DNA of 64,000 bases, taken from positions 38,576 to 102,575 of the forward strand of contig JABHLH010000002.1 in NCBI GenBank assembly GCA_018692925.1, given 5' to 3'. The DNA is from an archaeon (GTDB lineage: Archaea > Nanobdellota > Nanobdellia > SCGC-AAA011-G17 > GW2011-AR17). Numbering within the stretch: the first letter of the stretch is position 1; each line of letters begins with the position of its first letter. Of the stretch, positions 7,272 to 36,928 are shown piece by piece. The notes under the pieces were generated by a model. That model was not told the DNA's origin and did not search any database. It saw only the letters and a list, made by a program, of their open reading frames with translations. A program made the position numbers and the translations under genes.

Positions 7272-8058
7272 TTTTTTTCCTCTTAATTTTTTTCTTTGAT
7301 AAAAGCGAATAAGGGTTCATTAAACCTATTTGTATTATAGCCTTATAGATTAAATAAAATGATATAATCTTAAAAAAATGACCTACAAGATTTGATAATC
7401 CGAAAACGCTTACATAAAATGTAAATGCTAACTCTGCAAATATTGTAAAGATTATTGAGCTTATTATTAAATAAAAGATAATCTTATCAAATTTCTCTTT
7501 ATATTCCCATAAAAAAACAATAGATCCAATTAAAATAATAGAAATTATATATTCACTTATAATTTTAAATTGTGTTAATCCACTATCTACAATAAATGCA
7601 TCTGGAAATATTCTTAGATAAAATATGCTTACAAAAATAAAACTTGTAATAATAAAATAAATCAAAGAAGTCAACTTTGGTTTTAATTCCCTTATTATAA
7701 AAATAGGTGCTACTAAAAAAGAGAGAGCTTGTAGATAACGTGCAGCTATCCATAACTGGGTTGGTAAATTAGCATCAAATCCTGAAAATATATTTATCCC
7801 TTGATATGCTAATAAATGAACAAAATCTATACTTGCAATAAAAACTAAACTTATTCCTAAAAATAACAAATAATCATTATCAACAAAAAACCTTGAATTT
7901 CATGCAATCATAAATATTCCTACTGCAATAACAATACTAAATATTTCTGCTACACTATGGAATAATGCATAATTTTCATAAAAACTTGTTAACCAAATAC
8001 CTACTAAAGCTAAAATAAAAATAACTATTTCTAATTTGCTAAATATTTTTTCTTTCAT
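7258..8058 (-). pseudogene. Polytopic membrane sensor-domain protein interrupted by an in-frame TGA
   Basis: The ATG at 8058 opens a frame (MKEKIFSKLEIVIFILALVGIWLTSFYENYALFHSVAEIFSIVIAVGIFMIA) that hits TGA at 7902..7900. The same frame continues (NSRFFVDNDYLLFLGISLVF...) into the 203-aa ORF 7258..7869, which has no ATG start. Confidence 0.4.
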
Positions 8059-8070
8059 TATCAGACCTCT

Positions 8071-9978
8071 TTACTTTAATATTAACCTTAATTTATATTT
8101 AAATTCTTCGGATTTTTCTTTAGTTATTATTGATCTTGCAAATAGTAGATCTATTTGAGGGATCATAATTTTCAAATCCATATTACTTTTTACTTTATTA
8201 AAATAAAATTCTCCTTTTTTCTTTCCAATTATTTCAATATAAATATCTTTTATTTCTTTTTCAATTCCTTTTCTTATAACTCTTTTTTCAATTTTTTTAT
8301 GTGTTTCTCCACTTATTAAATATAAATTATCTACAAATTCTTCCGCTTGTTCTTGGTCTATAACTTTTTCTTTCTTAATTAAATTAATATAATTAATTAA
8401 CTCCTTTAAACCTAACTTATTTTGTGTATCTAATTCATTAAATTCTCTTTTTCCAATCGGACCTAAAAAAGATTTAAAAATATCTCTTATTTCCTCTTTT
8501 TTATCTGTTTTTTTAGAAAAAAGAAGTTTAATAGGTTCTATTTCTTTTACAGCTTTTAATGGGAAAGTAAAATTAAATGTAGTTCCAATATTTTCTTTAC
8601 TATTAAACCAAATTTTCCCTTTTTGAGATTTAACAATTCCTTTTGCAATTGCTAAACCTAATCCGGTTCCTAGGCTTTCTCTATACATAGTTTGTTTAGC
8701 TTGAAAGAAAGGTTCAAAAATTCTAGATTGTTGTTCTTTATTTATACCTCTTCCTTTATCTTGAACAGAAAACAATATTTCATTACTTTGTTTTTTTACT
8801 GATACATTTATACTTGTATTCTTTTTTGAAAACTTCACAGCGTTATTTAGTAGATTCCTTAAAACTTGCATTATTCTATCTGGATCAGATTCAATAATAG
8901 GTAGTTTTTCAATTTTTGTTTCTATTTTTATTTTCTTTTCTGGCATAAATAATGATGTCTCTTTTACTACTCTCTCAATATAGGGAGTAATATCTGTTTT
9001 TACAAATCTAAATTTTAACCTTGCAGCTTCAATTCTACTTATTTCTAAAAAATCTACAATAATATTATCTAACCTTTCTGTATTTCTAGCTACAATATCT
9101 AAAGATTCTTCTTGTTTTTTGTTTAACTTACCATAATATCCACCTATTAACATTTGTAATTGTGCTCTCATTGGAGTCATAGGGCTTCTTAATTCATGGC
9201 TTGTTATTGATATAAATTCTGTCTTGGATCTTTCTAATTGAGTGTGTTCTTTCTCTCTATATTCTAATATTTCTGCCGTTCTATTCAAAGAATTAGATAA
9301 TCTTTTTAATTCATCCTTTGTACTTATTTTTATTCTATATTTATAATTATTTTTTTCTAATTCATTAACCATCTCATTTAATCTTTTTATCGGTTTTGTA
9401 ATATTTTTTGAAAATAAATATCCTATAAACATTGTAAATATTAAGATTATTATTCCTATAATAAAGTAACTTAATTCTATATTTTTAACAGATTCAAGAG
9501 CTTGATCAGAATTGATTTCTCCAACAACAAGCCAATTTAAATTATTTATTAACTCTTTTGTATCTTCGTCTTTAATGTTAAGTGATCTTCCAAAAATTTC
9601 AATAACAGCAAAAGTTTTTTCTCCTTGATAATTTAAATGTTCTAATAATTGATCTTCTTTTGTTTCAAGTGCTAAATTTACACCTTCGGTATCTACTAAT
9701 AGATTTCCTGAAGAATTTTCAATAAATCTTGATTCTGTTAACATAATTCTATCTTCGTTTACAATATATATCTCTCCTGTTTCTCCTAGAATTCTTCTTT
9801 CACTTGTAATTTCATTTATTGCTCTAATATTTGTATCTCTAACTGCTATGGCTGTTATTGAAGATTTTGAAGAAGTTACAAGTGAAGAAGCTTTAACAGC
9901 AATCATAGATGCTGAATCTGAAATGAATGAAATGATTAATGATAATTTTTCAGTTAATGCTGTAAATGATACTATCAT
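8071..9978 (-). CDS. Sensor histidine kinase (cache-like sensor, TM, HAMP, HisKA, HATPase_c, about 150-aa C-terminal extension)
   Basis: H-box ITSHELRSPMTPM, N-box LLNNAVKFS, G-boxes DKGRGI and GTGLGLAIAKGIV, a TM (YFIIGIIILIFTMFIGYLF) and HAMP. N-terminal limit is uncertain (see findings). Confidence 0.85.
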   Translation of the reverse strand: MIVSFTALTEKLSLIISFISDSASMIAVKASSLVTSSKSSITAIAVRDTNIRAINEITSERRILGETGEIYIVNEDRIMLTESRFIENSSGNLLVDTEGVNLALETKEDQLLEHLNYQGEKTFAVIEIFGRSLNIKDEDTKELINNLNWLVVGEINSDQALESVKNIELSYFIIGIIILIFTMFIGYLFSKNITKPIKRLNEMVNELEKNNYKYRIKISTKDELKRLSNSLNRTAEILEYREKEHTQLERSKTEFISITSHELRSPMTPMRAQLQMLIGGYYGKLNKKQEESLDIVARNTERLDNIIVDFLEISRIEAARLKFRFVKTDITPYIERVVKETSLFMPEKKIKIETKIEKLPIIESDPDRIMQVLRNLLNNAVKFSKKNTSINVSVKKQSNEILFSVQDKGRGINKEQQSRIFEPFFQAKQTMYRESLGTGLGLAIAKGIVKSQKGKIWFNSKENIGTTFNFTFPLKAVKEIEPIKLLFSKKTDKKEEIRDIFKSFLGPIGKREFNELDTQNKLGLKELINYINLIKKEKVIDQEQAEEFVDNLYLISGETHKKIEKRVIRKGIEKEIKDIYIEIIGKKKGEFYFNKVKSNMDLKIMIPQIDLLFARSIITKEKSEEFKYKLRLILK

Positions 9979-10905: not shown

Positions 10906-10989
10906 GCGCGAGTGCCGGAGTGGTCAAACGGGCTGGACTCAAAATCCAGTGGCTTAGTGCCTACGCAGGTTCGAAACCTGTCTCGTGCA
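10906..10989 (+). tRNA. tRNA-Leu (anticodon CAA), class II with long variable arm
   Basis: Acceptor GCGCGAG/CTCGTGC, anticodon stem CTGGA/TCCAG with loop CTCAAAA, long variable arm, T-arm GCAGG-TTCGAAA-CCTGT, discriminator A. CCA not encoded. Confidence 0.85.
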
Positions 10990-10998
10990 CTTTATTTT

Positions 10999-11766: not shown

Positions 11767-11846
11767 AAAAAAAAGAATATAACTTTTCTTTAAATAACTT
11801 CCTTTTTAACAAAAAATTTATAAATTCATTTAACTTAAAAAAATAA

Positions 11847-12428
11847 ATGGTCCATTTAAGTTTAGAAACTGCAATTTCAACAATAAAACCTTTATCTATT
11901 TTTGTAGCTGCTATGGTTGTTTATGCTATTTTCATTTTCAAATTTTATAGGTTTGTTGCAACAAGAGATATTTTTGAATTAAACTTACAACAATATTCTT
12001 CAAGATCTTCTTGGGCTTGGTTACAAAAATTACTTTCTGTCATTTTATACATTTTAGAATATTTAATATTCTTCCCTATTTTAGTAGCTATTTGGTCTGG
12101 AGTATTTTCTTTACTATTAATATTCCTTTCCAAACAAGATGTTTCTTTAGTTTTGCTAGTAGCAATTGCTATTGTAAGTTCTATTAGGGTTACTTCTTAT
12201 TACAATGAAGATTTAGCTAAAGATTTGGCAAAAATGTTGCCTTTTGCTCTATTAGGTGTTTTCCTAATTGACATCTCTTTTTTTACTTTTGAAACAATTC
12301 CAGCAACATTATTATCTATTCCTAGTTACTATAATGTCATTCTATACTACTTAATTTTTACAATTTTGGTAGAATTTGTTTTAAGAGTTGTCACCTTTAT
12401 TTTTGGACTACAAAACGATGTAGAATAA
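11847..12428 (+). CDS. Polytopic membrane protein, hypothetical
   Basis: 193 aa with about 5 predicted TM helices. Confidence 0.45.
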   Translation: MVHLSLETAISTIKPLSIFVAAMVVYAIFIFKFYRFVATRDIFELNLQQYSSRSSWAWLQKLLSVILYILEYLIFFPILVAIWSGVFSLLLIFLSKQDVSLVLLVAIAIVSSIRVTSYYNEDLAKDLAKMLPFALLGVFLIDISFFTFETIPATLLSIPSYYNVILYYLIFTILVEFVLRVVTFIFGLQNDVE

Positions 12429-12589
12429 TTCAACTTTTAGTTGAAAATTAGTCCTACAAAAGCTTTTTAAAGAGGAATTCTTCTTTTTATATTATATGGG
12501 AAACACCTTTTTTTCAGATACTATCAATGCTGTAAACGAAAAGAAACTTTGGGCATTAACTTATGCTAAAAGAAAGAAATAATTTATTT

Positions 12590-12934
12590 TCAATCTTTTC
12601 TTCTAATTAAGAAAGGCAGTAGTATAGAACTTTTTTCTACCACTTCATTTGTATAAGATAAACTTATTGCAACAACAACTACAATTGCAATTACAGAAAC
12701 AAATAGGATTCCTGCACTAAGAATTATTTTTTTATTTCCTAACAAATTTGCAAAACCTTTTTTTTCTTCAACAATAGCTTTTGTTTCTTTTACTTCTTGA
12801 GTAACTGTTCCTTGCTCTTGTATTGGAACTTGATGTGGTGCTCCTTGTGGTACTTGCACTCTTGGTGCCATTGGTCTAGAAATAATTTTCTTTCTACCAA
12901 ACAAAGGACCTCTTTTTGGGGTAAATACTTTCAT
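12590..12934 (-). CDS. Small membrane-anchored protein, hypothetical
   Basis: 114 aa with a Pro/Gln-rich N-terminus and one TM (ILSAGILFVSVIAIVVVVAISL). Confidence 0.35.
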   Translation of the reverse strand: MKVFTPKRGPLFGRKKIISRPMAPRVQVPQGAPHQVPIQEQGTVTQEVKETKAIVEEKKGFANLLGNKKIILSAGILFVSVIAIVVVVAISLSYTNEVVEKSSILLPFLIRRKD

Positions 12935-15418: not shown

Positions 15419-16027
15419 ATGCAAAAAGCAATAGCTCTATTATCTGGTGGAATTGATTCTCCAGTAGCAATTTACAGAATGCAAGAACACTTTGACATAG
15501 TCGCTGTTCACTTTCACCAACTTCCTTTAACTGGTGAACATGAAATTGAAAAGGTAAAAGAATTAGCAAAAAAACTTAATGTGAAAAAATTATATTTAAT
15601 TCCTTTTGTTGATGTTTTCAAAGAACTTGTAGAAAAATGTAATCCTAGAGACTATTTTATTCTTTCAAAAATTGCAATGTTTAAAGCAGCTGAATTTATT
15701 GCAGAGAAAGAAAAAACTAACTTTCTAATCACAGGTGAAAATCTTGCACAAGTTTCTTCACAAACCTTATCTAATTTAAAATCTATAGAATCTCAATTAA
15801 AATTAAAAATATTAAGACCTTTACTAACTTTTGACAAACAAGAAATAATTAACATAGCAAGAGAAATTGAAACTTACGAAATTTCAAAAGGTCCAGAGAT
15901 TTGTTCTTTATTGGGTCCAAAAAATCCTTCAACAAAATCTTCAGTTTTCAAAATAAATCTTGAACTTCAAAAAATAGATTTGAATAAAATAATTCAAGAA
16001 AAAATAAAAGAAGCTAGTATCCTCTAA
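15419..16027 (+). CDS. thiI: Stand-alone PP-loop ATP pyrophosphatase domain of tRNA sulfurtransferase ThiI
   Basis: Exact PP-loop LLSGGIDSPVA. About 200 aa, matching the ThiI C-terminal domain. No THUMP domain in this ORF. Confidence 0.7.
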   Translation: MQKAIALLSGGIDSPVAIYRMQEHFDIVAVHFHQLPLTGEHEIEKVKELAKKLNVKKLYLIPFVDVFKELVEKCNPRDYFILSKIAMFKAAEFIAEKEKTNFLITGENLAQVSSQTLSNLKSIESQLKLKILRPLLTFDKQEIINIAREIETYEISKGPEICSLLGPKNPSTKSSVFKINLELQKIDLNKIIQEKIKEASIL

Positions 16028-16709
16028 TGTCAACTTCTTCAAAGGCTTCAGAACATATTATTTTAAAATTTTCCATTTCTTCTTTTGTATAAATTACTTC
16101 ACTTTTCAAATCTTCGTTAATAATTAAATTTCTTTTATCAAACTGTTGTAAAACGTATCTTTTACTTCCTTTCAACCAAGAACAAATCTTTTTGATATCT
16201 TCTTCTGTGGTTAAACTTCTAACTAATGTTGTTCTGAACTCATAATCCTTACCAGAATTTTTTATTAATTCTACACTTCTTTTTATTTTTTCTAAATCTA
16301 CTTTTACACCACAATTTCTCTCATAACTTTCTAAAGAACTTTTTATATCCATTGCAATAAAATCAACATATGGGATTAACTCTTCTAAAACTTCTGGTCT
16401 TGTTCCATTACTATCTAACTTTACTAAAAAACCTTTATCTTTTACTTTTTTTACAAACTCTAAAAGTCCTTCACTTAATGTTGGTTCTCCACCTGTAATT
16501 GTAATTGCATCTAATTTACCTTTTCTATCGTCTAAAAAACTTAAAATTAATTCTTCACTAATATCTTCTCCTTTTTCAGAAAATAGGCTTAACTCTGGAT
16601 TATGACAAAAGGGACATCTAAAATTACATTTAGGAAGAAAAAGAACGGCCGTAATCTGGCCAGGGTAGTCAATTAAAGAACTCCTAAGAATTCCTTTAAA
16701 ATTCAACAT
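16014..16709 (-). CDS. nrdG: Anaerobic ribonucleotide reductase activating protein (radical SAM)
   Basis: CNFRCPFCHN radical-SAM cluster motif. Lies immediately downstream of nrdD. Confidence 0.85.
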   Translation of the reverse strand: MLNFKGILRSSLIDYPGQITAVLFLPKCNFRCPFCHNPELSLFSEKGEDISEELILSFLDDRKGKLDAITITGGEPTLSEGLLEFVKKVKDKGFLVKLDSNGTRPEVLEELIPYVDFIAMDIKSSLESYERNCGVKVDLEKIKRSVELIKNSGKDYEFRTTLVRSLTTEEDIKKICSWLKGSKRYVLQQFDKRNLIINEDLKSEVIYTKEEMENFKIICSEAFEEVDIRGY

Positions 16710-16920
16710 TTTTTACAACTTCCAAAATCTCTTCTTCAGAGACTTTCTCTTTATTGAAAGCCTCTAAAGTTCTTCCGTATTTACTTTCTAAACTAGACTT
16801 CATACAAAAAGTTTTTCTATCAAAAAACTCAGCCTTTTTTCCTTTATTCCATTGTGTCACAGGTCTATGATATCCTACAACTCTACTATATACTTCACAT
16901 TGTTTTCCACATTTACTCAT
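16696..16920 (-). CDS. NrdD C-terminal glycyl-radical domain as a separate small ORF
   Basis: MSKCGKQCEVYSRVVGYHRPVTQWNKGKK carries the RVxGY glycyl-radical motif. The ATG at 16920 is preceded by the Shine-Dalgarno sequence AAAGGAGGTGA. Overlaps the nrdD stop by 8 nt. Confidence 0.65.
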   Translation of the reverse strand: MSKCGKQCEVYSRVVGYHRPVTQWNKGKKAEFFDRKTFCMKSSLESKYGRTLEAFNKEKVSEEEILEVVKNVEF

Positions 16921-18892
16921 TCTGCTCACCTCCTTTTGTGCTGACTACAGCTTCATATGGGCACTCATGATGTTCTCCTGCAATGTATCCATGCTCTGGA
17001 CAAATACTAAATGTTGGAGTTATTGTATAGTATGGTATTCTATATGTGTGTGCAATTCTTTTTACTAATTTTTTACACGCTTCAATACTATCTATTTTTT
17101 CTCCAATAAAACAGTGGAACACAGTTCCTCCTGTATACTTACATTGCAATTCTTCTTGGCTATCTAAAGCTTCAAAAATATCATCTGTTGCATTCACTGG
17201 TAACTGTGAACTATTTGTATAATATGGTTCTTCTGTTCCAGCTGTAATTATATTTGGATATTTCATCTTATCAATTCTTGCCAATCTATAACTAGTTCCT
17301 TCTCCAGGTGTAGCTTCTAAATTATAGATGTGTCCTGAATCTTCTTGGTATTGTTTTAATCTTGATCTCATAAAATCTAAAATCTCAATTGCAAAATCTC
17401 TTCCTTCATCATCAAGCATATCTTTCTTCAAGAAATTCAAACAACATTCATTCATTCCAATTAATCCAATTGTTGAAAAATGATGGTCTAAATTTTCTAG
17501 ATATCTTTTTGTGTAAGGCAACAATCCATATTCCATATATCTTGTAACAACCTTTCTTTTAATTTCTAAAGAATTTTGAGCCATATCCATTAAGATTTTT
17601 AATCTTCTAAAGAATTCGTCTCTATCTTTACTAACAAATCCTAATCTTGGTAGATTAATTGTAGCAACTCCAATAGAACCTGTATTTTCTCCAGAACCAA
17701 ACAATCCTCCAGTTTTACTTCTAAGTTCTCTTACATCAAGTTGTAATCTACAACACATACTTCTAACATCTGTTGGTTTCAACTCACTGTTAACAAAATT
17801 TTGGAAATAAGGGATACCATATTTTGAAGTCATTTCAAATAATATATTTGCATTATCACTATCCCAATCAAAATCTTTTGTAATGTTATAAGTTGGTATA
17901 GGGAAAGTAAATATTCTTCCATCAGCGTCTCCTTCCATCATACATTCCATGAAAGCTTTATTGATCATATCCATTTCCTTTTGATAATCTTTATACTTGT
18001 TTTCTTGTCTCTTTCCACCAATGATTACTTTTTCTTCTGCCAAATCTTCAGGTACTGTCCAATCAAATGTAAAATTTATGAAAGGTGTTTGTGTTCCCCA
18101 TCTGCTTGGTGTAGCAATATTAAATAGTAATCTTTGCATTTGTTGTTTAACTTCTTTGTAAGTCATATTATCTACTCTTACATATGGAGCTAGATAAGTA
18201 TCTACAGAGGACAAAGCTTGAGCTCCTGCCCATTCATTTTGCATTGTTCCTAAGAAATTAACCATTTGTCCAATTACAGTATCAAAATGCTTTGGTTGTT
18301 TTGTTTGTAACTTTCCATAAACTCCACCAAAACCTTCTTCTAACAATTGTCTAAGTGACCAACCTGCACAGTAACCTGAGAACATACTCAAATCATGTAA
18401 GTGGAAATCCCCATTTGAATGTGCATTTTTAATTTCTGCAGGATAAATATTATTCAACCAATAATTAGCAGTAATTTTTCCAGAGATGTACAAAATCAAA
18501 CCTCCAAGAGAAAATCCTACATTACTATTTTCATTTACTCTCCAATCAATTTGATCAAGGTATTCTTTCATTGTACCTTCAACATCTAATAATACTTTTT
18601 TACTCTCTCTTTCTCTCCTTCTATTCTCTCTATAAATGATAAAAGATTTTGCTGCTGCATGATCATTGTCTTTTATTAGAACTTCTTCTATTGAATCTTG
18701 AATTTCTTCTACTGAAGGAATTTGATAAGGATTTTTTTCTTCAACCATTCTAGCAACTTTTTGTGCTAGTTCTTGTGCTTTATCTTTACTACCAATTCCA
18801 GTTGCTTTCATTGCACTGAATATTGCTTCTGCTATTCTCTCTTTATTGAAAAGAATAATACTTCCATCTCTTTTTTTTACATGTGTTACCAT
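16913..18892 (-). CDS. nrdD: Anaerobic ribonucleoside-triphosphate reductase (class III) catalytic polypeptide, lacking the glycyl-radical motif
   Basis: 659 aa with an N-terminal ATP-cone and the class III core. Ends ...CPEHGYIAGEHHECPYEAVVSTKGGEQNE before the RVxGY motif. Confidence 0.9.
   Translation of the reverse strand: MVTHVKKRDGSIILFNKERIAEAIFSAMKATGIGSKDKAQELAQKVARMVEEKNPYQIPSVEEIQDSIEEVLIKDNDHAAAKSFIIYRENRRRERESKKVLLDVEGTMKEYLDQIDWRVNENSNVGFSLGGLILYISGKITANYWLNNIYPAEIKNAHSNGDFHLHDLSMFSGYCAGWSLRQLLEEGFGGVYGKLQTKQPKHFDTVIGQMVNFLGTMQNEWAGAQALSSVDTYLAPYVRVDNMTYKEVKQQMQRLLFNIATPSRWGTQTPFINFTFDWTVPEDLAEEKVIIGGKRQENKYKDYQKEMDMINKAFMECMMEGDADGRIFTFPIPTYNITKDFDWDSDNANILFEMTSKYGIPYFQNFVNSELKPTDVRSMCCRLQLDVRELRSKTGGLFGSGENTGSIGVATINLPRLGFVSKDRDEFFRRLKILMDMAQNSLEIKRKVVTRYMEYGLLPYTKRYLENLDHHFSTIGLIGMNECCLNFLKKDMLDDEGRDFAIEILDFMRSRLKQYQEDSGHIYNLEATPGEGTSYRLARIDKMKYPNIITAGTEEPYYTNSSQLPVNATDDIFEALDSQEELQCKYTGGTVFHCFIGEKIDSIEACKKLVKRIAHTYRIPYYTITPTFSICPEHGYIAGEHHECPYEAVVSTKGGEQNE
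16926..16933 (-). promoter_or_regulatory. Shine-Dalgarno sequence (GGAGGTGA) for the glycyl-radical small ORF
   Basis: Minus strand reads aaaaGGAGGTGAgcagaATG. A comparable AGAGGTGA precedes the GTG start of the class II RNR gene. Confidence 0.5.
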
Positions 18893-20218: not shown

Positions 20219-20292
20219 AGCCTCAGCCGTGATTTGAACACGGGACCTCTTGCTTACCAAGCAAGTGCTATACCGAGCTAAGCCACTGAGGC
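20219..20292 (-). tRNA. tRNA-Thr (anticodon GGU)
   Basis: Reverse complement folds as acceptor GCCTCAG/CTGAGGC, anticodon stem CTTGC/GCAAG with loop TTGGTAA, T-arm CCGTG-TTCAAAT-CACGG, discriminator U. Confidence 0.85.
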
Positions 20293-30903: not shown

Positions 30904-31776
30904 ATGCACTGGGTAATACTTACATTAATTTCAGCAATATTAGTTTCCTTTGTAATATTGATTGAAAAATATGTTATTATTCATGATTTAAAAGATCCAG
31001 TAATTATGGCTGGGGTTCTAGGGCCTGGTTTCTTTTTAGTTTACACAATATATACTCTTATTTTTGGGACATTTATAATCTCTTTATCAGCAATGATTTT
31101 TGCATTTTTTGTTGGTGTCTTCCATGTGTTAGCTCTTTTCTTTTATTATAAATCAATAAAGAAAGAAGAAGTCTCAAGAATAATTCCTTTATTTTCAATT
31201 ACTGGGATTTTTATTTTAATTTTTGCTTTTTTCTTTTTTGGTGAAACTTTTTCATTAATTCAATATTTAGGAATTTTTGCAATAATTATAGGATCTTTTT
31301 TACTTTCTATAAAAAATTTTTCAGATTTAAGATTAAGCATAGCTTTTCTCTTTGCAATAATTTCTTCATTCCTTTTAGCAATGAGAGCCATTTTTGTAAA
31401 ATTTGCTTCAAATCTGATTCCTATTACTGGAATTTTCTTTTGGGTAGGTCTTGGGGTTTTAACTACTTCTTTAATTTTATTTATTACTCACTATCATAAA
31501 TTTTCTAAAAAAGAATTTGAAGGAATAGAAATCTTATTTTTTACAAGTTTACTTGCTGCACTAGGGATTCTATCCTTTTTTTCAGCAATTTCTCTAGCTC
31601 CTGTTACCTTAGTTTCAACATTATTTCAAACATATGTATTTTTTACTTTTATTGGAGCAACTATTTTAACTTTAGTTTATCCTAAATTTATTAGAGAAAA
31701 ATTGTCTAAAAAGATTTTTATTCAAAAATTAATTGCAATTATATTAATCTTTATAGGATCATATTTTATTTTATAG
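30904..31776 (+). CDS. EamA/DMT-superfamily transporter
   Basis: 290 aa with about 10 TM helices in two 5-TM halves. Confidence 0.65.
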   Translation: MHWVILTLISAILVSFVILIEKYVIIHDLKDPVIMAGVLGPGFFLVYTIYTLIFGTFIISLSAMIFAFFVGVFHVLALFFYYKSIKKEEVSRIIPLFSITGIFILIFAFFFFGETFSLIQYLGIFAIIIGSFLLSIKNFSDLRLSIAFLFAIISSFLLAMRAIFVKFASNLIPITGIFFWVGLGVLTTSLILFITHYHKFSKKEFEGIEILFFTSLLAALGILSFFSAISLAPVTLVSTLFQTYVFFTFIGATILTLVYPKFIREKLSKKIFIQKLIAIILIFIGSYFIL

Positions 31777-32794
31777 TTTCAACTTCAATCTTTTCTAAAT
31801 CACAAAATTCAGTAGAAAAATTATAAGCTCCTGCATTTAAGAAAACAATCTCATCTCCTTCTTTAAGATCTTTCAAATAAACTCTATACCTAAAAAGATC
31901 CATAGAACAAGGTGTAACTCCTTTTATTACATAAGCTTCTCCTTCTCCTTTTTTCAATTCTCCTTCTACTAATAATTTCACCGGAACAATCAAAGCATCC
32001 ATATCTGAGTTATATACAGAAGCATCAACAATAATATTATTATCATATATTCTCAAAACTTTTGTTACAAGTTTAACTGCTGGAGCTGCAATAAATCTTC
32101 CTGGCTCAACAATCATTTTTATTTCATAATTATTTAACCATTCTCTAAAATCTTTCAATTTCTTTTTAATCCCATCAACAACTTTCACATTTGTATTTGC
32201 ATATACAGAAGGTAATCCTCCACCAATATTCATATAATCTAAACTTTTCAAACATTCTTCATCTAAAACTAAAGAAATTTCTTCTTTAAGGTTCCATTCA
32301 CTCATATTTTGTGTTTTTCTATGGAAGTGTACGCCTAATTTATCAATCTTAGAATTTTCTTTTAATTCTATAACTCTGGAATTAATTATTTTTGAACTCA
32401 TTCCAAATACAAAGAATTTTTCTGTCCTCAAACTATGTTCTTTTAATTTTAATCTAAGCAACAAATTAACTTTGCCTTCATAATTTTCTAAAAACTTTAA
32501 TAAAATATCTAAATCTCTCTCATTATCGACTGCAAAATTGTCAATTTTTTTAGAAATTAAATCCTTTATTTCTTCTTCATTCCAACCTTGTGCTAAAAAT
32601 ATAACTCTTGACAAATCTTTAATATTTTTTAATTCATTTACTAAATGTACACTAAACATACAATTTTCATTTTCTTCTAAAATCTCAGTAACTAAAGAAT
32701 TTGTTTTAGAACTATAAGAAACCAAATCACAAATCTCTTCAATCTCTTTATATTTCTCTAAAACAATTTTCTTATCTAAAATAAATTTAGGCAT
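31766..32794 (-). CDS. Fold-III PLP-dependent decarboxylase (ornithine/arginine/DAP or carboxy(nor)spermidine decarboxylase family)
   Basis: NIGGGLP, EPGRFIAAPA and a C-terminal CSMDLF motif. Overlaps the deoxyhypusine synthase gene by 8 nt, indicating an operon. Confidence 0.6.
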   Translation of the reverse strand: MPKFILDKKIVLEKYKEIEEICDLVSYSSKTNSLVTEILEENENCMFSVHLVNELKNIKDLSRVIFLAQGWNEEEIKDLISKKIDNFAVDNERDLDILLKFLENYEGKVNLLLRLKLKEHSLRTEKFFVFGMSSKIINSRVIELKENSKIDKLGVHFHRKTQNMSEWNLKEEISLVLDEECLKSLDYMNIGGGLPSVYANTNVKVVDGIKKKLKDFREWLNNYEIKMIVEPGRFIAAPAVKLVTKVLRIYDNNIIVDASVYNSDMDALIVPVKLLVEGELKKGEGEAYVIKGVTPCSMDLFRYRVYLKDLKEGDEIVFLNAGAYNFSTEFCDLEKIEVETIK

Positions 32795-33743
32795 TCAATA
32801 AATCCTCCTCATCTAAAACTTCTAAAGCCCTAATCATTGCCATTGGGAAAGTAAATGTAACATCTCCAATCACTGTAGCAATATCTGAATCATCTTTCAC
32901 TTTACCCCATGATTTTGCTTCATTAGTTGTAGCACCTGACATTGATCCTGAAGTCTTATGTGCTGTGGTCATATAAACTGCATACTCAGCTCCTCCATTC
33001 AATAATGTACAAAGTATAGCGTGATGTTTAGAAATGCTTCCACCAAGAGCTATAACACCTTTCTTCTCATCATGAGATGTACTCAATAAAATATTACCAA
33101 AATCTTTCACAACATCTACAACAAAATCTTCATGGTTCTGTTGAAACAAATACAAATGAAATCCAAAAGCACCATCAGTTATAGCAGGACAGAAAATTGG
33201 AACATTATTTTTTGCAGCTTGATACAAGATAGAATTTTCATCATTTAATGTTAAACCAATCTCTTTCAATAAATCAGACACAGCCCATCTTTTCTTCTTT
33301 TCATACAATTGTTGTAAAATTCTAGACATCTTGTCTTCAAAATTCATATAACTCTCATTATTGATTGTCAAGTTTCCAACTCTATTAATTCCTTGCTCAT
33401 GTAACTCAACATCATCACTGTTAAAAGTTCCAATATTAAATTCTTCACCAGTAGCTTTCATAAAATCTTCTTCTAAACCACCAACAGTTGTTACAATAAT
33501 ATCAGCCATTCCTAACTTTATTAATTGTGCAAAGAATCCTCTCAATCCTGAAGTTACCATATTTGAAGTAAATGTTAAAAAAATCTTAGCATTATTTTTC
33601 TTCATCTTCACAAAAACTTCTGAAGCTTTATTCAATTCTATACTTTGAAACCCAACATGACCTAGCTCATTCACTAAATCTTTAACCGTAATATTCTTTT
33701 TCCATTTAAAATCTCGAACTTTTTTCATAATATAAACCTCCAA
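32787..33743 (-). CDS. Deoxyhypusine synthase
   Basis: TSNMVTSGLR, CPAITDGAFG and GGSISKHH blocks. 318 aa. Confidence 0.85.
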   Translation of the reverse strand: MEVYIMKKVRDFKWKKNITVKDLVNELGHVGFQSIELNKASEVFVKMKKNNAKIFLTFTSNMVTSGLRGFFAQLIKLGMADIIVTTVGGLEEDFMKATGEEFNIGTFNSDDVELHEQGINRVGNLTINNESYMNFEDKMSRILQQLYEKKKRWAVSDLLKEIGLTLNDENSILYQAAKNNVPIFCPAITDGAFGFHLYLFQQNHEDFVVDVVKDFGNILLSTSHDEKKGVIALGGSISKHHAILCTLLNGGAEYAVYMTTAHKTSGSMSGATTNEAKSWGKVKDDSDIATVIGDVTFTFPMAMIRALEVLDEEDLLNA

Positions 33744-33883: not shown

Positions 33884-34621
33884 ATGATCATAGTAAAATA
33901 TGCCGAAATTGCAATCAAAGGTAAGAATAGAGTAGATTTTGAGAGAAAGTTGAGAGAAAATATTAAAGATTGTATAAAAATAAATCGAATTCCTTTTGAA
34001 AAAGTTCGAAGAATGAGGGGAAGAATTTTAATTTACACTGATCAAGAATGTCCTCAGTTAAAAAATGTTTTCGGAATAGCTTCATTTTCATATGCTAAAA
34101 GATACTCACAAGATTTACAAACAATCAAAGAAGAAGCATTAAAACTTTACAAGAAAGGAACTTTCAAGGTGTTTGTAAAAAGATCAGATAAGGTTCTAAA
34201 AAATTCTATGGAACTAGCTGCAGAGATTGGCGCATATATTGTAGAGAAAACAAATGCTCCTGTTGATGTAAAAAATCCAGAAACAAAAATTAATGTTGAA
34301 TTATTTAATCACTTTGCTTATTTATACACTGAAACTAATCAAGGTCCTGGTGGTTTACCAATTGGTTCAGATTCGAATGTTATCTTATTACTTCAAAACA
34401 AAGATTCTATTGAAGCTGGATTAAGAATTTTAAAGAGAGGTTGTTCTTTAGATGTTTACAAAGAAAAAGATATTGACTATTCTAAATTAAAAGAATACGA
34501 ATATGGTTTTAGAATTAAAGAATTGGAAGAGATGCCTGAAGAACCAGAAGCTGTAATTGTATCAGATAAAGTAGATTCAATAAAAGATTATCCTTACTTT
34601 GTTTTAAGACCTTTAATATAA
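33884..34621 (+). CDS. ThiI-like THUMP-domain protein with a degenerate, truncated PP-loop
   Basis: N-terminus MIIVKYAEIAIKGKNRVDFERKL matches the ThiI ferredoxin-like and THUMP region. GGLPIGSDSNVILLLQNKDSIEAG sits where SGGIDS would be. Confidence 0.65.
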   Translation: MIIVKYAEIAIKGKNRVDFERKLRENIKDCIKINRIPFEKVRRMRGRILIYTDQECPQLKNVFGIASFSYAKRYSQDLQTIKEEALKLYKKGTFKVFVKRSDKVLKNSMELAAEIGAYIVEKTNAPVDVKNPETKINVELFNHFAYLYTETNQGPGGLPIGSDSNVILLLQNKDSIEAGLRILKRGCSLDVYKEKDIDYSKLKEYEYGFRIKELEEMPEEPEAVIVSDKVDSIKDYPYFVLRPLI

Positions 34622-34657: not shown

Positions 34658-35272
34658 ATGCAATATAAAATTCTTGGGAATGGAAACTTTGATAATATCT
34701 GTGATTCTCAAGCTTACAAAGATGTAAAAGAATATTTGAATTATTTAATCTCTCACCAAGGTCTTGATATTTTAGACATTAAAGTAACTCTTTATGGAAC
34801 TGTTAGAAATCCAGAATTTAATTTTTTTAGAAAAAAAGGATTATTTGGTTTCCTTGGAAAATCCAAAGTAAATTCAAAAGCACCTAATGGATATGAACAA
34901 GCACCTTATGTTACTATACCCCTAGGATCAACAAGAATAGATTCCTTAGATTACACAACTCACCTTAATGCTGCAAAATCTGCAAACTCTTCTTTTGGAG
35001 ATTGTCATGAAGTTTATTTTGCAATTACATTCAAAGAAACTAATAGGACAAATGAAGAAATTAGATCTTATTTTAAAAGGTACAGAAGAAAGAACAGTAT
35101 TAGGATTTACATTACTTCCTCAATTGCTGGTCAAGATATATCTAATTTATCTAATTACAAAGATTTAGAAGGGAATAAAATAACAAATAAAGATATTGCA
35201 GTTTACATCAGTATTGACGATCCAACTTCCAACTTATTATCATTTCCTTTAATAGAAGAGCAGGCTGCTTAA
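34658..35272 (+). CDS. Hypothetical protein, member of a tandem paralogue pair with an FG[DE]CH motif
   Basis: 204 aa containing SSFGDCHEVYFAI. Alignable to the next ORF. Confidence 0.45.
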   Translation: MQYKILGNGNFDNICDSQAYKDVKEYLNYLISHQGLDILDIKVTLYGTVRNPEFNFFRKKGLFGFLGKSKVNSKAPNGYEQAPYVTIPLGSTRIDSLDYTTHLNAAKSANSSFGDCHEVYFAITFKETNRTNEEIRSYFKRYRRKNSIRIYITSSIAGQDISNLSNYKDLEGNKITNKDIAVYISIDDPTSNLLSFPLIEEQAA

Positions 35273-35309: not shown

Positions 35310-35882
35310 ATGCCAAGGCTAAAGCAAGTAGATACTATTGTATACAAGAATGTTAACTTTGATACAATTGCTGAAAGAGTTTATTTATTTATCTTACAAC
35401 TAAAGGAAGAAAAACAATTAAAATCTTTAAGATTTGTTTTCTCCGGTACAATTATTCATAATCTTCCAAAAAAGAAAGCTTTTTTTTCTAGATTATTTTC
35501 AAGAAAAGAAGAGATTATTGAAGATTATACTCCTTATGAAACTGTAAATTTATATTTTGAAAATTTAGATAATATTCCTTATTTATATTCAGATTTACTT
35601 GGAGCAATTCGTCAACAAAATCCTCATTTTGGAGAATGTCATTCTTTTATGATTAACTTATATCCTTCAAAAAAAGCTCATAAATCAAATCTTTTAAATG
35701 ATATTCATATTTATACAGATCTTGTTGGAGAGAATGCTATGGAACTTGAAAAGTTAAAGGCTTTAAGATATCTAAAGGGAACAAATTTAGAAACTACTGT
35801 TAATGTTACTTTCCCTGCAGGCTATGAAAAAGAGTTCTTTAGACTTGAACAAAACCTTTTTAAACCATCTATAAAACCTTGA
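35310..35882 (+). CDS. Hypothetical protein, paralogue of the preceding ORF
   Basis: 190 aa containing NPHFGECHSFMINLY, with shared upstream blocks (F.GT....P......F). Confidence 0.45.
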   Translation: MPRLKQVDTIVYKNVNFDTIAERVYLFILQLKEEKQLKSLRFVFSGTIIHNLPKKKAFFSRLFSRKEEIIEDYTPYETVNLYFENLDNIPYLYSDLLGAIRQQNPHFGECHSFMINLYPSKKAHKSNLLNDIHIYTDLVGENAMELEKLKALRYLKGTNLETTVNVTFPAGYEKEFFRLEQNLFKPSIKP

Positions 35883-36928
35883 TTTCTATGAAAATATTTG
35901 TAAAAACCTTTGGCTGCACTTTTAACAAAAGAGACTCTGAAATTATTAAAGGGGTTTTATCTACTAATCAATTTGAAATTGTAGATTCCGAGGAGAAAGC
36001 AGACATTATTGTAGTTAATTCTTGTGGTGTTAAAGATCAAACTCAAAGCAAAATTATCTTTTACATTGAATCCTTAAACAAACCTGTTTATCTTGGTGGT
36101 TGCTTACCTAAAATTTTAGATCTAAAAAATATAAAAAATGTTAAAGGTGTTTTTGATACAAATACAATTAATAATTTACCTAATCAAATTAATGGAGAAA
36201 TTAAAGAACTTTTTTCTTCAAAGAAACTTAACAAATTAGAACTTCCTGTTCAGCAAGATAGTGAAGATACTTTAATCATTCAAATCTCAGAAGGCTGTTT
36301 AGGGGATTGTAATTATTGTGCTACTAAATTTGCTAGAGGGAAATTAAAATCTTATTCTATATCTGATATTGTAAACGCAATAAAAGGTTTCAAGGGTACA
36401 AGGGTAAATTTAACTTCTCAAGATACTGGTTGTTATGGTTATGATATTGATACAAATCTTGCAAATTTATTAAAAGAGATGGTAAAACTTGAAGGAGATT
36501 TTATAGTTAGAGTTGGAATGATGAATCCTGAACACATTTTAAAATTTTTACCTGACTTTGTTGAAATTTTCAAAGATAAAAGGTTCATGAGGTTCTTACA
36601 CATACCTATTCAATCCGGATCTAATAAAATTTTAAAAGAAATGAACAGAAAATATACTCTTGAACAATTCAAAGAATTAGTAAATGCTTTAAGAAAAGAT
36701 ATTCCTGACATTCACATAGCTACAGATATTATTATTGGTTATCCTACAGAAACTGAAGAAGATTTTTTAGAGACTAAAAAGTTTTTAGAAGAAATGAATT
36801 TTGAAGTATTAAACTTGTCTAAGTACACTGCAAGACCTGGAACTTATTCTAAAAAGAATTTAAAACCTTTAAAATCAGAAATTGTTAAAGAAAGAAGTAT
36901 TATTTTTGATAAATTTATAAAAAAATAA
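35879..36928 (+). CDS. Radical-SAM methylthiotransferase (MiaB/MtaB-like) lacking a TRAM domain
   Basis: MTTase N-terminal domain VKTFGCTFNKRDSE and radical-SAM CLGDCNYCATKFARG. Confidence 0.8.
   Translation: MISMKIFVKTFGCTFNKRDSEIIKGVLSTNQFEIVDSEEKADIIVVNSCGVKDQTQSKIIFYIESLNKPVYLGGCLPKILDLKNIKNVKGVFDTNTINNLPNQINGEIKELFSSKKLNKLELPVQQDSEDTLIIQISEGCLGDCNYCATKFARGKLKSYSISDIVNAIKGFKGTRVNLTSQDTGCYGYDIDTNLANLLKEMVKLEGDFIVRVGMMNPEHILKFLPDFVEIFKDKRFMRFLHIPIQSGSNKILKEMNRKYTLEQFKELVNALRKDIPDIHIATDIIIGYPTETEEDFLETKKFLEEMNFEVLNLSKYTARPGTYSKKNLKPLKSEIVKERSIIFDKFIKK

Follow-up and report, generated by a model that had tools for sequence, protein, structure and literature searches.

A 64-kb window of the archaeal contig JABHLH010000002.1 (assembly GCA_018692925.1), the whole stretch of DNA analyzed here, carries two unlinked open reading frames (ORFs), A and B, whose products probably form a heterodimeric tRNA U8 4-thiouridine (s4U8) synthetase consisting of an enzyme and a pseudoenzyme, which would have arisen by duplication and complementary degeneration of ThiI. 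ThiI is a textbook example of a tRNA-modifying enzyme that consists of one chain. In the window, ORF A encodes only its PP-loop ATP pyrophosphatase (PPase) domain, and ORF B encodes a ferredoxin-like domain at the N terminus (NFLD), a THUMP domain and a vestigial PPase domain. Much is known of this enzyme family and its chemistry, and the pairing of an enzyme and a pseudoenzyme from two genes is what we propose here. The physical A:B interaction, the s4U8 product and the sulfur source are what we infer from the evidence set out below.

Our profile and structural comparisons identified ORF A as a ThiI-type PPase with an intact SGGIDSPVA motif, exactly as an earlier note, made from the sequence without database searches, had read it. 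Pfam ThiI (PF02568) matched residues 3-187 with an E-value of 6e-54, whereas TIGR00342 (ThiI, 373 positions) was covered only from 173 to 368, i.e., over the PPase domain, at a score below its cut-off (173.6 vs. 264.5 bits). The protein begins with MQKAIALLSGGIDSPVA; its start lies six residues ahead of the PP-loop, and the NFLD and THUMP domains are not on the same polypeptide. The earlier note had named QueC, MnmA and TtuA as families to which A might belong instead, and no such grouping was found. Rival Pfam PP-loop families matched A much more weakly (QueC, 2.5e-9; MnmA-type, 1e-4), and the top Foldseek match of its AlphaFold2 (AF2) model (pLDDT, 91.4) was 4kr6_A, the PPase domain of Thermotoga maritima ThiI (template modeling [TM] score, 0.94; root mean square deviation, 1.6 Å; 36% identity; E = 8.6e-19), compared with E-values of 2.6e-7, 1e-6 and 1.4e-6 and TM-scores of about 0.5 for QueC, MnmA and TtuA, respectively. 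Among the relatives, which were the 120 best database matches for each protein, SGGxDS was kept in 118/120 of the A type, and the PP-loop, G106, E107, N108, Q111 and Q115 of the GENxxQVxSQT loop, and C162 were invariant among 116 A relatives. As predicted from these residues, A is a catalytically complete ThiI PPase. No rhodanese domain was detected in A with Pfam, the CXXC positions of the [4Fe-4S] class are occupied by F80 and S83, and the CXXC+C motif is absent. ThiI enzymes have been divided into a rhodanese class (class 1), a CXXC+C [4Fe-4S] class (class 2) and a third class with neither, the mechanism of which is least understood (PMC9825150); lacking both features, A falls into the third class. 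Another conserved cysteine, C74, is not specific to stand-alone proteins, being found in 35/85 full-length ThiI representatives too. In current databases, A-type proteins are named QueC, ThiI or hypothetical.

The THUMP domain is encoded apart, 18 kb downstream on the same strand, where the earlier note had placed it, and Pfam recognized both PF22025 and PF02926 in ORF B. TIGR00342 was covered by B over positions 1-201, again below the whole-protein cut-off. [quoted passage not shown] B is thereby predicted to be catalytically incompetent and ATP-blind, and B-type proteins are currently named "tRNA 4-thiouridine synthase" despite this predicted inability to bind ATP. SGGxDS occurred in 0/119 short members of the B-type family, and GGLP, MKRGC and the C-terminal (V/I)LRPLI were conserved in all B-type proteins. 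Longer B-type relatives (275-285 aa) gave a faint Pfam ThiI match, suggesting a graded series of decay. The homology of the tail was seen only with profile methods: BLASTP of A against B returned nothing significant, and hhalign of B against the A family aligned B 221-245 with A 108-136 (the NLAQVSSQT...LRPL segment) at E = 1.1e-5. Within the B family, the mean pairwise identity of the remnant was 0.48 (151-192) and 0.42 (221-245), with 0.29 in the collapsed middle (193-220), and that of the RNA-binding domains was 0.40 (THUMP) and 0.52 (NFLD). The AF2 model of B had a pLDDT of 95.4 (92-97 in the tail) and a predicted TM-score of 0.89. Because the remnant is homologous to the PPase domain, confidently folded and conserved like THUMP, we argue that it has retained a structural role and that B is a conserved pseudoenzyme rather than a decaying fragment. 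The top Foldseek match of the B model was 1vbk_A (PH1313 of Pyrococcus horikoshii; TM-score, 0.85; E = 1.6e-24), which aligned over its full length in 294 columns, whereas canonical ThiIs aligned over only ~205 columns (TM-score, 0.65).

The earlier note had described these genes as a ThiI split in two. The two unlinked genes bear this out, but the arrangement is not a simple split, since B still has a vestigial PPase, which overlaps with A. B (1-201) and A (173-368) are not complementary, non-overlapping pieces in ThiI coordinates, and a clean gene fission of the kind that produced the split genes of Nanoarchaeum is thus ruled out. Duplication of a full-length archaeal ThiI followed by complementary loss would be the simplest origin, and it fits the overlap better than fission does. 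A six-frame hidden Markov model (HMM) scan of the window detected a single A-like and a single B-like gene and no further ThiI-like gene. The window represents 64 kb of the genome, and Pyrococcus has been reported to carry several ThiI homologs, with an active full-length TtuI beside PH1313; a full-length canonical ThiI elsewhere in this genome could make s4U8 and leave A and B as accessory or decaying paralogs. We consider this quite improbable, as both families show purifying selection and length conservation over hundreds of sequences, just 1/120 best B relatives is a full-length ThiI, and frameshifts and internal stops are absent from both ORFs. Moreover, redundant paralogs are rarely retained in DPANN genomes, which are small.

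Action of the two products in trans, as the earlier note had supposed, is plausible as a mechanism, since this is how canonical ThiI already operates within its homodimer (PMC4041423), although the A:B contact itself is a step that we infer. In the T. maritima ThiI-RNA structures, the homodimer is the functional unit and is held together mainly by the PPase domains, with the NFLD and THUMP of one subunit binding the acceptor stem and CCA end and U8 being set at the PPase of the other (PMC4041423). The NFLD loop Ser12-Arg21 of one subunit (subunit B of the homodimer) lies on loop 289-297 of the PPase of subunit A, with Lys17 reaching into the active site of the latter, and Gly168 of the linker is hydrogen-bonded to Asp319 of the other monomer (PMC4041423). 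In the proposed heterodimer, the NFLD and THUMP of ORF B would hold the acceptor stem together with the CCA end like a clamp, and its shrunken PPase remnant may provide a docking surface for A, like the PPase-PPase interface of the ThiI homodimer. The sole working active site would be located on A, where the PP-loop would adenylate U8 and Cys162 would join in sulfur transfer, and the NFLD loop of B, with K12, would complete this site in trans. The A:B dimer, joined through the A PPase and the B remnant, would amount to one of the two working halves of the symmetric canonical dimer.

Alignments of A and B to ThiI structures showed that the trans-acting elements are each conserved on whichever partner the heterodimer model requires to carry them. 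On B, the equivalents of T. maritima Lys17 (K12), Arg46 (R47) and Gly168 (G157) are invariant, and that of Arg21 (R16) is invariant or nearly so. On A, the equivalent of loop 289-297 (residues 109-117) is invariant, that of Asp319 (D139) is conserved in at least 97%, and that of Lys350, which contacts the RNA bulge, is the family consensus (K168). The sole fact supporting the formation of s4U8 by A and B is that both tRNAs of the window carry U8 (Table 1).

Table 1. Positions of ORFs A and B, their domains and key residues, and the tRNA genes in the window
Feature	Coordinates	Strand	Basis
ORF A, ThiI-type PP-loop ATP pyrophosphatase, 202 aa, ATG start, proposed catalytic subunit	15419..16027	+	Pfam, TIGR00342, AF2, Foldseek
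PP-loop motif SGGIDSPVA, A residues 9-17, predicted ATP binding	15443..15469	+	sequence
Cys74 of A, possible second sulfur-relay or cluster ligand	15638..15640	+	invariant in A family (116/116)
A residues 106-117, GENLAQVSSQTL, ATP-phosphate/dimer-interface loop (T. maritima 286-297)	15734..15769	+	alignment and PMC4041423
Cys162 of A, equivalent of catalytic Cys344 of T. maritima/E. coli ThiI	15902..15904	+	alignment; invariant 116/116
ORF B, PH1313-type pseudo-ThiI, 245 aa, NFLD + THUMP + vestigial PPase, proposed tRNA-presenting subunit	33884..34621	+	Pfam, phmmer, AF2, Foldseek
NFLD, B residues 1-69	33884..34090	+	Pfam ThiI_fer PF22025, E = 1.7e-18
K12 loop of B, equivalent of T. maritima Lys17	33917-33919	+	alignment; role from PMC4041423
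THUMP domain, B residues 87-149, predicted acceptor stem and 3'-CCA binding	34142..34330	+	Pfam PF02926, E = 8.7e-14
Vestigial PPase domain, B residues 151-245: GGLP linker, beta1-alpha1-beta2, collapsed middle, beta4/DI-loop/beta5 to LRPLI	34334..34618	+	phmmer, hhalign, AF2
QNKDSIEA in the PP-loop place of B	34394-34417	+	alignment
tRNA-Leu(CAA), U at position 8, candidate substrate	10906..10990	+	
tRNA-Thr(GGU), U at position 8, candidate substrate	20219..20292	-	

A check of other lineage members, which the earlier note had suggested, revealed that the arrangement is lineage-wide and not peculiar to this genome. Scanning one genome per GTDB species with search patterns that came from the A half only yielded 72 stand-alone A-type loci in 72 assemblies, besides a few full-length bacterial ThiIs. 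Both families are large and length-conserved, and their members are annotated from metagenome-assembled genomes of Woesearchaeota, Nanoarchaeota and DPANN. A metagenome scan with the B-family alignment was dominated by canonical ThiIs through the common EIxLKGKN motif, and only L087-L091 were of the B type. When 1.8 billion cluster representatives were searched exhaustively with an HMM, 3,926 relatives were returned, and 55 of the 150 best were stand-alone (<=240 aa). In a neighbor-joining tree (no bootstrap support), the clade with the A of the window comprised 23 representatives, of which 22 were stand-alone and none had CXXC; next to it was a group of CXXC-bearing stand-alone PPases mixed with the few archaeal CXXC full-length enzymes. 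The CXXC group extends to Methanomassiliicoccales, Methanobacteriota, Halobacteriota, Hydrothermarchaeota and Aenigmarchaeota, and its reach, together with the make-up of the clade, indicates that the stand-alone state is old and diversified. The A/B arrangement is therefore an old, lineage-wide state. A recent gene disruption, assembly error or pseudogene that merely mimics a split has a negligible probability: nothing was found in its favor, the genes lie 18 kb apart in different conserved neighborhoods, the architecture recurs in 72 GTDB species and many metagenomes, and both proteins are confidently folded in AF2. Many of the GTDB records with Woesearchaeota-type A genes (L009, L014, L015 and others) are titled "uncultured Methanosarcinales archaeon" and are probably mislabeled.

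Several observations weigh against a heterodimer of A and B. A B-type gene was located within 10 kb of A in 0/72 GTDB A loci, and no A-type gene was present near any B-type relative examined; as the two genes were never adjacent, operon support is absent. Their co-occurrence on one contig is firm for only two contigs, namely this window and a 396,457-bp Joint Genome Institute (JGI) contig (A-type P0005 and B-type P0124), and appears likely for two more pairs, in which the longest contigs agree in length (147,824 bp in one pair and 77,692 bp in the other). PH1313 crystallized as a self-dimer, which means that B-type proteins may homodimerize. In the B remnant, the last third of the PPase domain, at the C terminus, is missing, so that an A:B interface would be smaller than that in ThiI. 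Lastly, the sulfur chemistry of A belongs to the least understood ThiI class (PMC9825150).

The absence of linkage also favors an alternative scenario, rather unlikely in our estimation, in which A and B have separate jobs. A would be a repurposed stand-alone PP-loop sulfurtransferase or adenylyltransferase, a possibility that the earlier note had raised; it would pair with itself or with some other protein, and its substrate would differ, being another position in RNA, a free nucleotide or a small molecule. B would be an independent, non-catalytic tRNA binder, e.g., a chaperone or an adaptor for another enzyme. Consistent with this scenario, each gene has its own conserved neighborhood, A being found with AAA_28/Nrd genes here and with cysS in most relatives, and B with the genes for deoxyhypusine synthase, ornithine/arginine decarboxylase and a radical-SAM UPF0004 protein. 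Related CXXC-type stand-alone PPases pair with a small 84-96-aa ORF and ThiF/ThiS genes, which suggests that stand-alone ThiI PPases can have other partners, and the THUMP-less fusion of ThiI with NFACT-R is a precedent for the replacement of THUMP (PMC4075521). However, A retains all ThiI-specific catalytic and interface elements, including D139 and the 109-117 loop, the equivalents of which contact the linker and NFLD of the other subunit in ThiI, and B retains K12 and a conserved PPase remnant that would be superfluous for a free-standing RNA binder. In addition, no alternative RNA-binding partner recurs beside the window-type A family, and the nucleotide-metabolism context of A (Nrd/AAA_28) is local synteny limited to close relatives (1/72 loci). 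On the same count of 1/72, the candidate role of A as a free-nucleotide enzyme, raised by its Nrd, AAA_28, ADK and TK neighbors, was set aside. Taken together, the biology of A and B is coherent as that of a heterodimer, with the key A:B interaction remaining a proposed one.

In relatives, the neighborhood of A offers a lead on its sulfur supply. The cysS gene was located 3' of A on the same strand in 44 of the 58 Woesearchaeota loci with enough downstream sequence, with a gap of <=71 bp in 16 (the A-cysS pair is seen, e.g., at L031:2294-4277 and in 43 other GTDB loci of the L007-L086 set); no cysS was found in the 64-kb window. The position of A directly upstream of cysS in most Woesearchaeota ties A to tRNA and cysteine biology, and the pairing may reflect co-regulation with cysteine/tRNA metabolism or a sulfur supply derived from cysteinyl-tRNA synthetase (CysRS). 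CysRS can make cysteine persulfide (PMC5660078), and we speculate that the rhodanese-less, CXXC-less PPase receives its sulfur in this form. The A/B pair bears on how ThiI enzymes without a rhodanese or Fe-S motif get sulfur.

After the CXXC-type stand-alone PPases of Methanomassiliicoccales, Methanobacteriota and a Methanosarcinales lineage comes a conserved 84-96-aa ORF with no Pfam match (L169:8621-8911, L170:8621-8890, L171:8617-8871, L071:9244-9474, L073:3938-4168, L076:9769-9996), and the two genes overlap by 4-14 bp, suggesting translational coupling. The product of this small ORF carries the motif FYLLKPC...CEISIY..GKLLIK, has no homolog in the window, and may be a distinct partner protein of the CXXC-type PPase. 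In L170 the gene directly upstream encodes ThiF, and L171 has cysteine desulfurase/NifU as well as ThiS/ThiF genes close by.

The neighborhood of B is conserved in relatives, with deoxyhypusine synthase and ornithine/arginine decarboxylase genes upstream; on the downstream side are unknown ORFs and the genes for a UPF0004/radical-SAM protein without TRAM and a TrmB regulator. In the window, the deoxyhypusine synthase and pyridoxal phosphate-dependent ornithine/arginine decarboxylase genes (31766-33743, minus strand) are divergent from B, an arrangement kept in L005, L174 and the 396-kb contig, which places B in a translation-factor/polyamine gene context. Right after B are ORFs of 204 and 190 aa (34658-35272 and 35310-35882, both plus strand) with no Pfam match, which look paralogous from a common ...NFD...G(D/E)CH... 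pattern; relatives, too, have one or two ORFs of this sort after B. They are succeeded by a 349-aa protein with UPF0004 and radical-SAM domains (35879-36928, plus strand; MiaB/MtaB/RimO-type methylthiotransferase), whose gene keeps its position two to three genes downstream of B and in which TRAM was undetected, making it seemingly a second RNA-modification-type enzyme without an RNA-binding module. A distant B-type relative (P0197, 280 aa, in L004) has a sulfur-mobilization context unlike that of the window, with cysteine desulfurase and NifU genes 1-2 kb upstream of B (7427-9382) and a gene for a 282-aa TtcA/TtuA-like PP-loop protein 1 kb downstream (11781-12629). The anaerobic ribonucleotide reductase NrdD of the window is encoded by a 659-aa ORF (16913-18892, minus strand) and an overlapping 77-aa ORF (16696-16929, minus strand) with a RVVGY glycyl-radical-like motif. 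This large and small NrdD arrangement recurs in relatives (61-82-aa ORFs matching Pfam NRDD), and the glycyl-radical domain could be either a conserved split or the product of a programmed frameshift.

Compared with known systems, A is the same as canonical ThiI/TtuI (T. maritima 4KR6/4KR7; Bacillus anthracis 2C5S) in its PPase domain, with 36% identity and all catalytic residues present, and B resembles the NFLD and THUMP of that enzyme at ~35% identity. The A:B mechanism is modeled on the way in which labor is divided in trans within the canonical homodimer (PMC4041423), and the pair, if real, would be a natural dissection of the trans mechanism that the T. maritima crystal structure shows. 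Canonical ThiI differs in being a single chain, as reviewed in PMC9957541 and PMC5372739, whereas here two polypeptides are encoded by unlinked genes, and no more than one active site per dimer would be possible; A also has no rhodanese or CXXC+C, and neither A nor B reaches the TIGR00342 cut-off. The ThiI PP-loop domain was long held to be always fused to THUMP (PMC4075521). The bacterial ThiI + NFACT-R (DUF814) proteins, for which s4U synthesis has been predicted, contain the same THUMP-less ThiI PP-loop domain and show that the PPase domain need not go together with THUMP (Burroughs & Aravind 2014, PMC4075521); there, however, CXXC is retained and THUMP is replaced by a fused RNA-binding domain with no relation to it, whereas here THUMP resides on a separate pseudoenzyme paralog. 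NCBIfam NF006222 (PRK08349, a ~198-aa "hypothetical protein") describes a stand-alone ThiI-like PPase of the length of A, and A aligned over nearly the whole model (E = 5.6e-44). Its membership was nevertheless rejected (150.4 bits vs. a cut-off of 251), and ten stand-alone representatives also scored below 251 bits, with a best of 234. In our literature search, which had partial coverage, we came across no report in which a PH1313-type pseudoenzyme was paired with a stand-alone PPase.

PH1313 (1VBK) shares the three-domain layout of B, including a reduced PPase with a degenerate PP-loop, where ILHDELSALA takes the place of the LLLQNKDSIEA of B. The two differ in length (307 aa vs. 245 aa), the B remnant being shorter still, and are only 27% identical, and Pyrococcus has an active full-length TtuI too. 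According to a 2023 review of THUMP proteins, conserved residues of ThiI are missing from PH1313, its PP-loop domain is smaller and its activity is unconfirmed. The A/B pair is a lead on PH1313. We tentatively put forward, as a generalization that is more doubtful than not, that PH1313-type pseudo-ThiIs are dedicated non-catalytic tRNA-presenting subunits and that the s4U8 synthase across much of Archaea is an obligate heterodimer with a stand-alone PPase. If true, this would provide the orphan structure 1VBK, now 20 years old, with a function, give PH1313-type proteins a testable function, and correct the database labels of both A-type and B-type proteins.

The evolutionary logic of A and B is the same as that of ADAT2/ADAT3 and Trm61/Trm6, eukaryotic tRNA enzymes in which a catalytic subunit is combined with an inactive tRNA-binding paralog derived from a duplicated homo-oligomer. 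These enzymes are a deaminase and a methyltransferase, respectively, and both of their subunits keep the full domain set, whereas A and B have each lost a different domain. If the heterodimer is real, the design of a catalytic subunit plus an inactive paralog, known from these eukaryotic enzymes, would be extended to Archaea.

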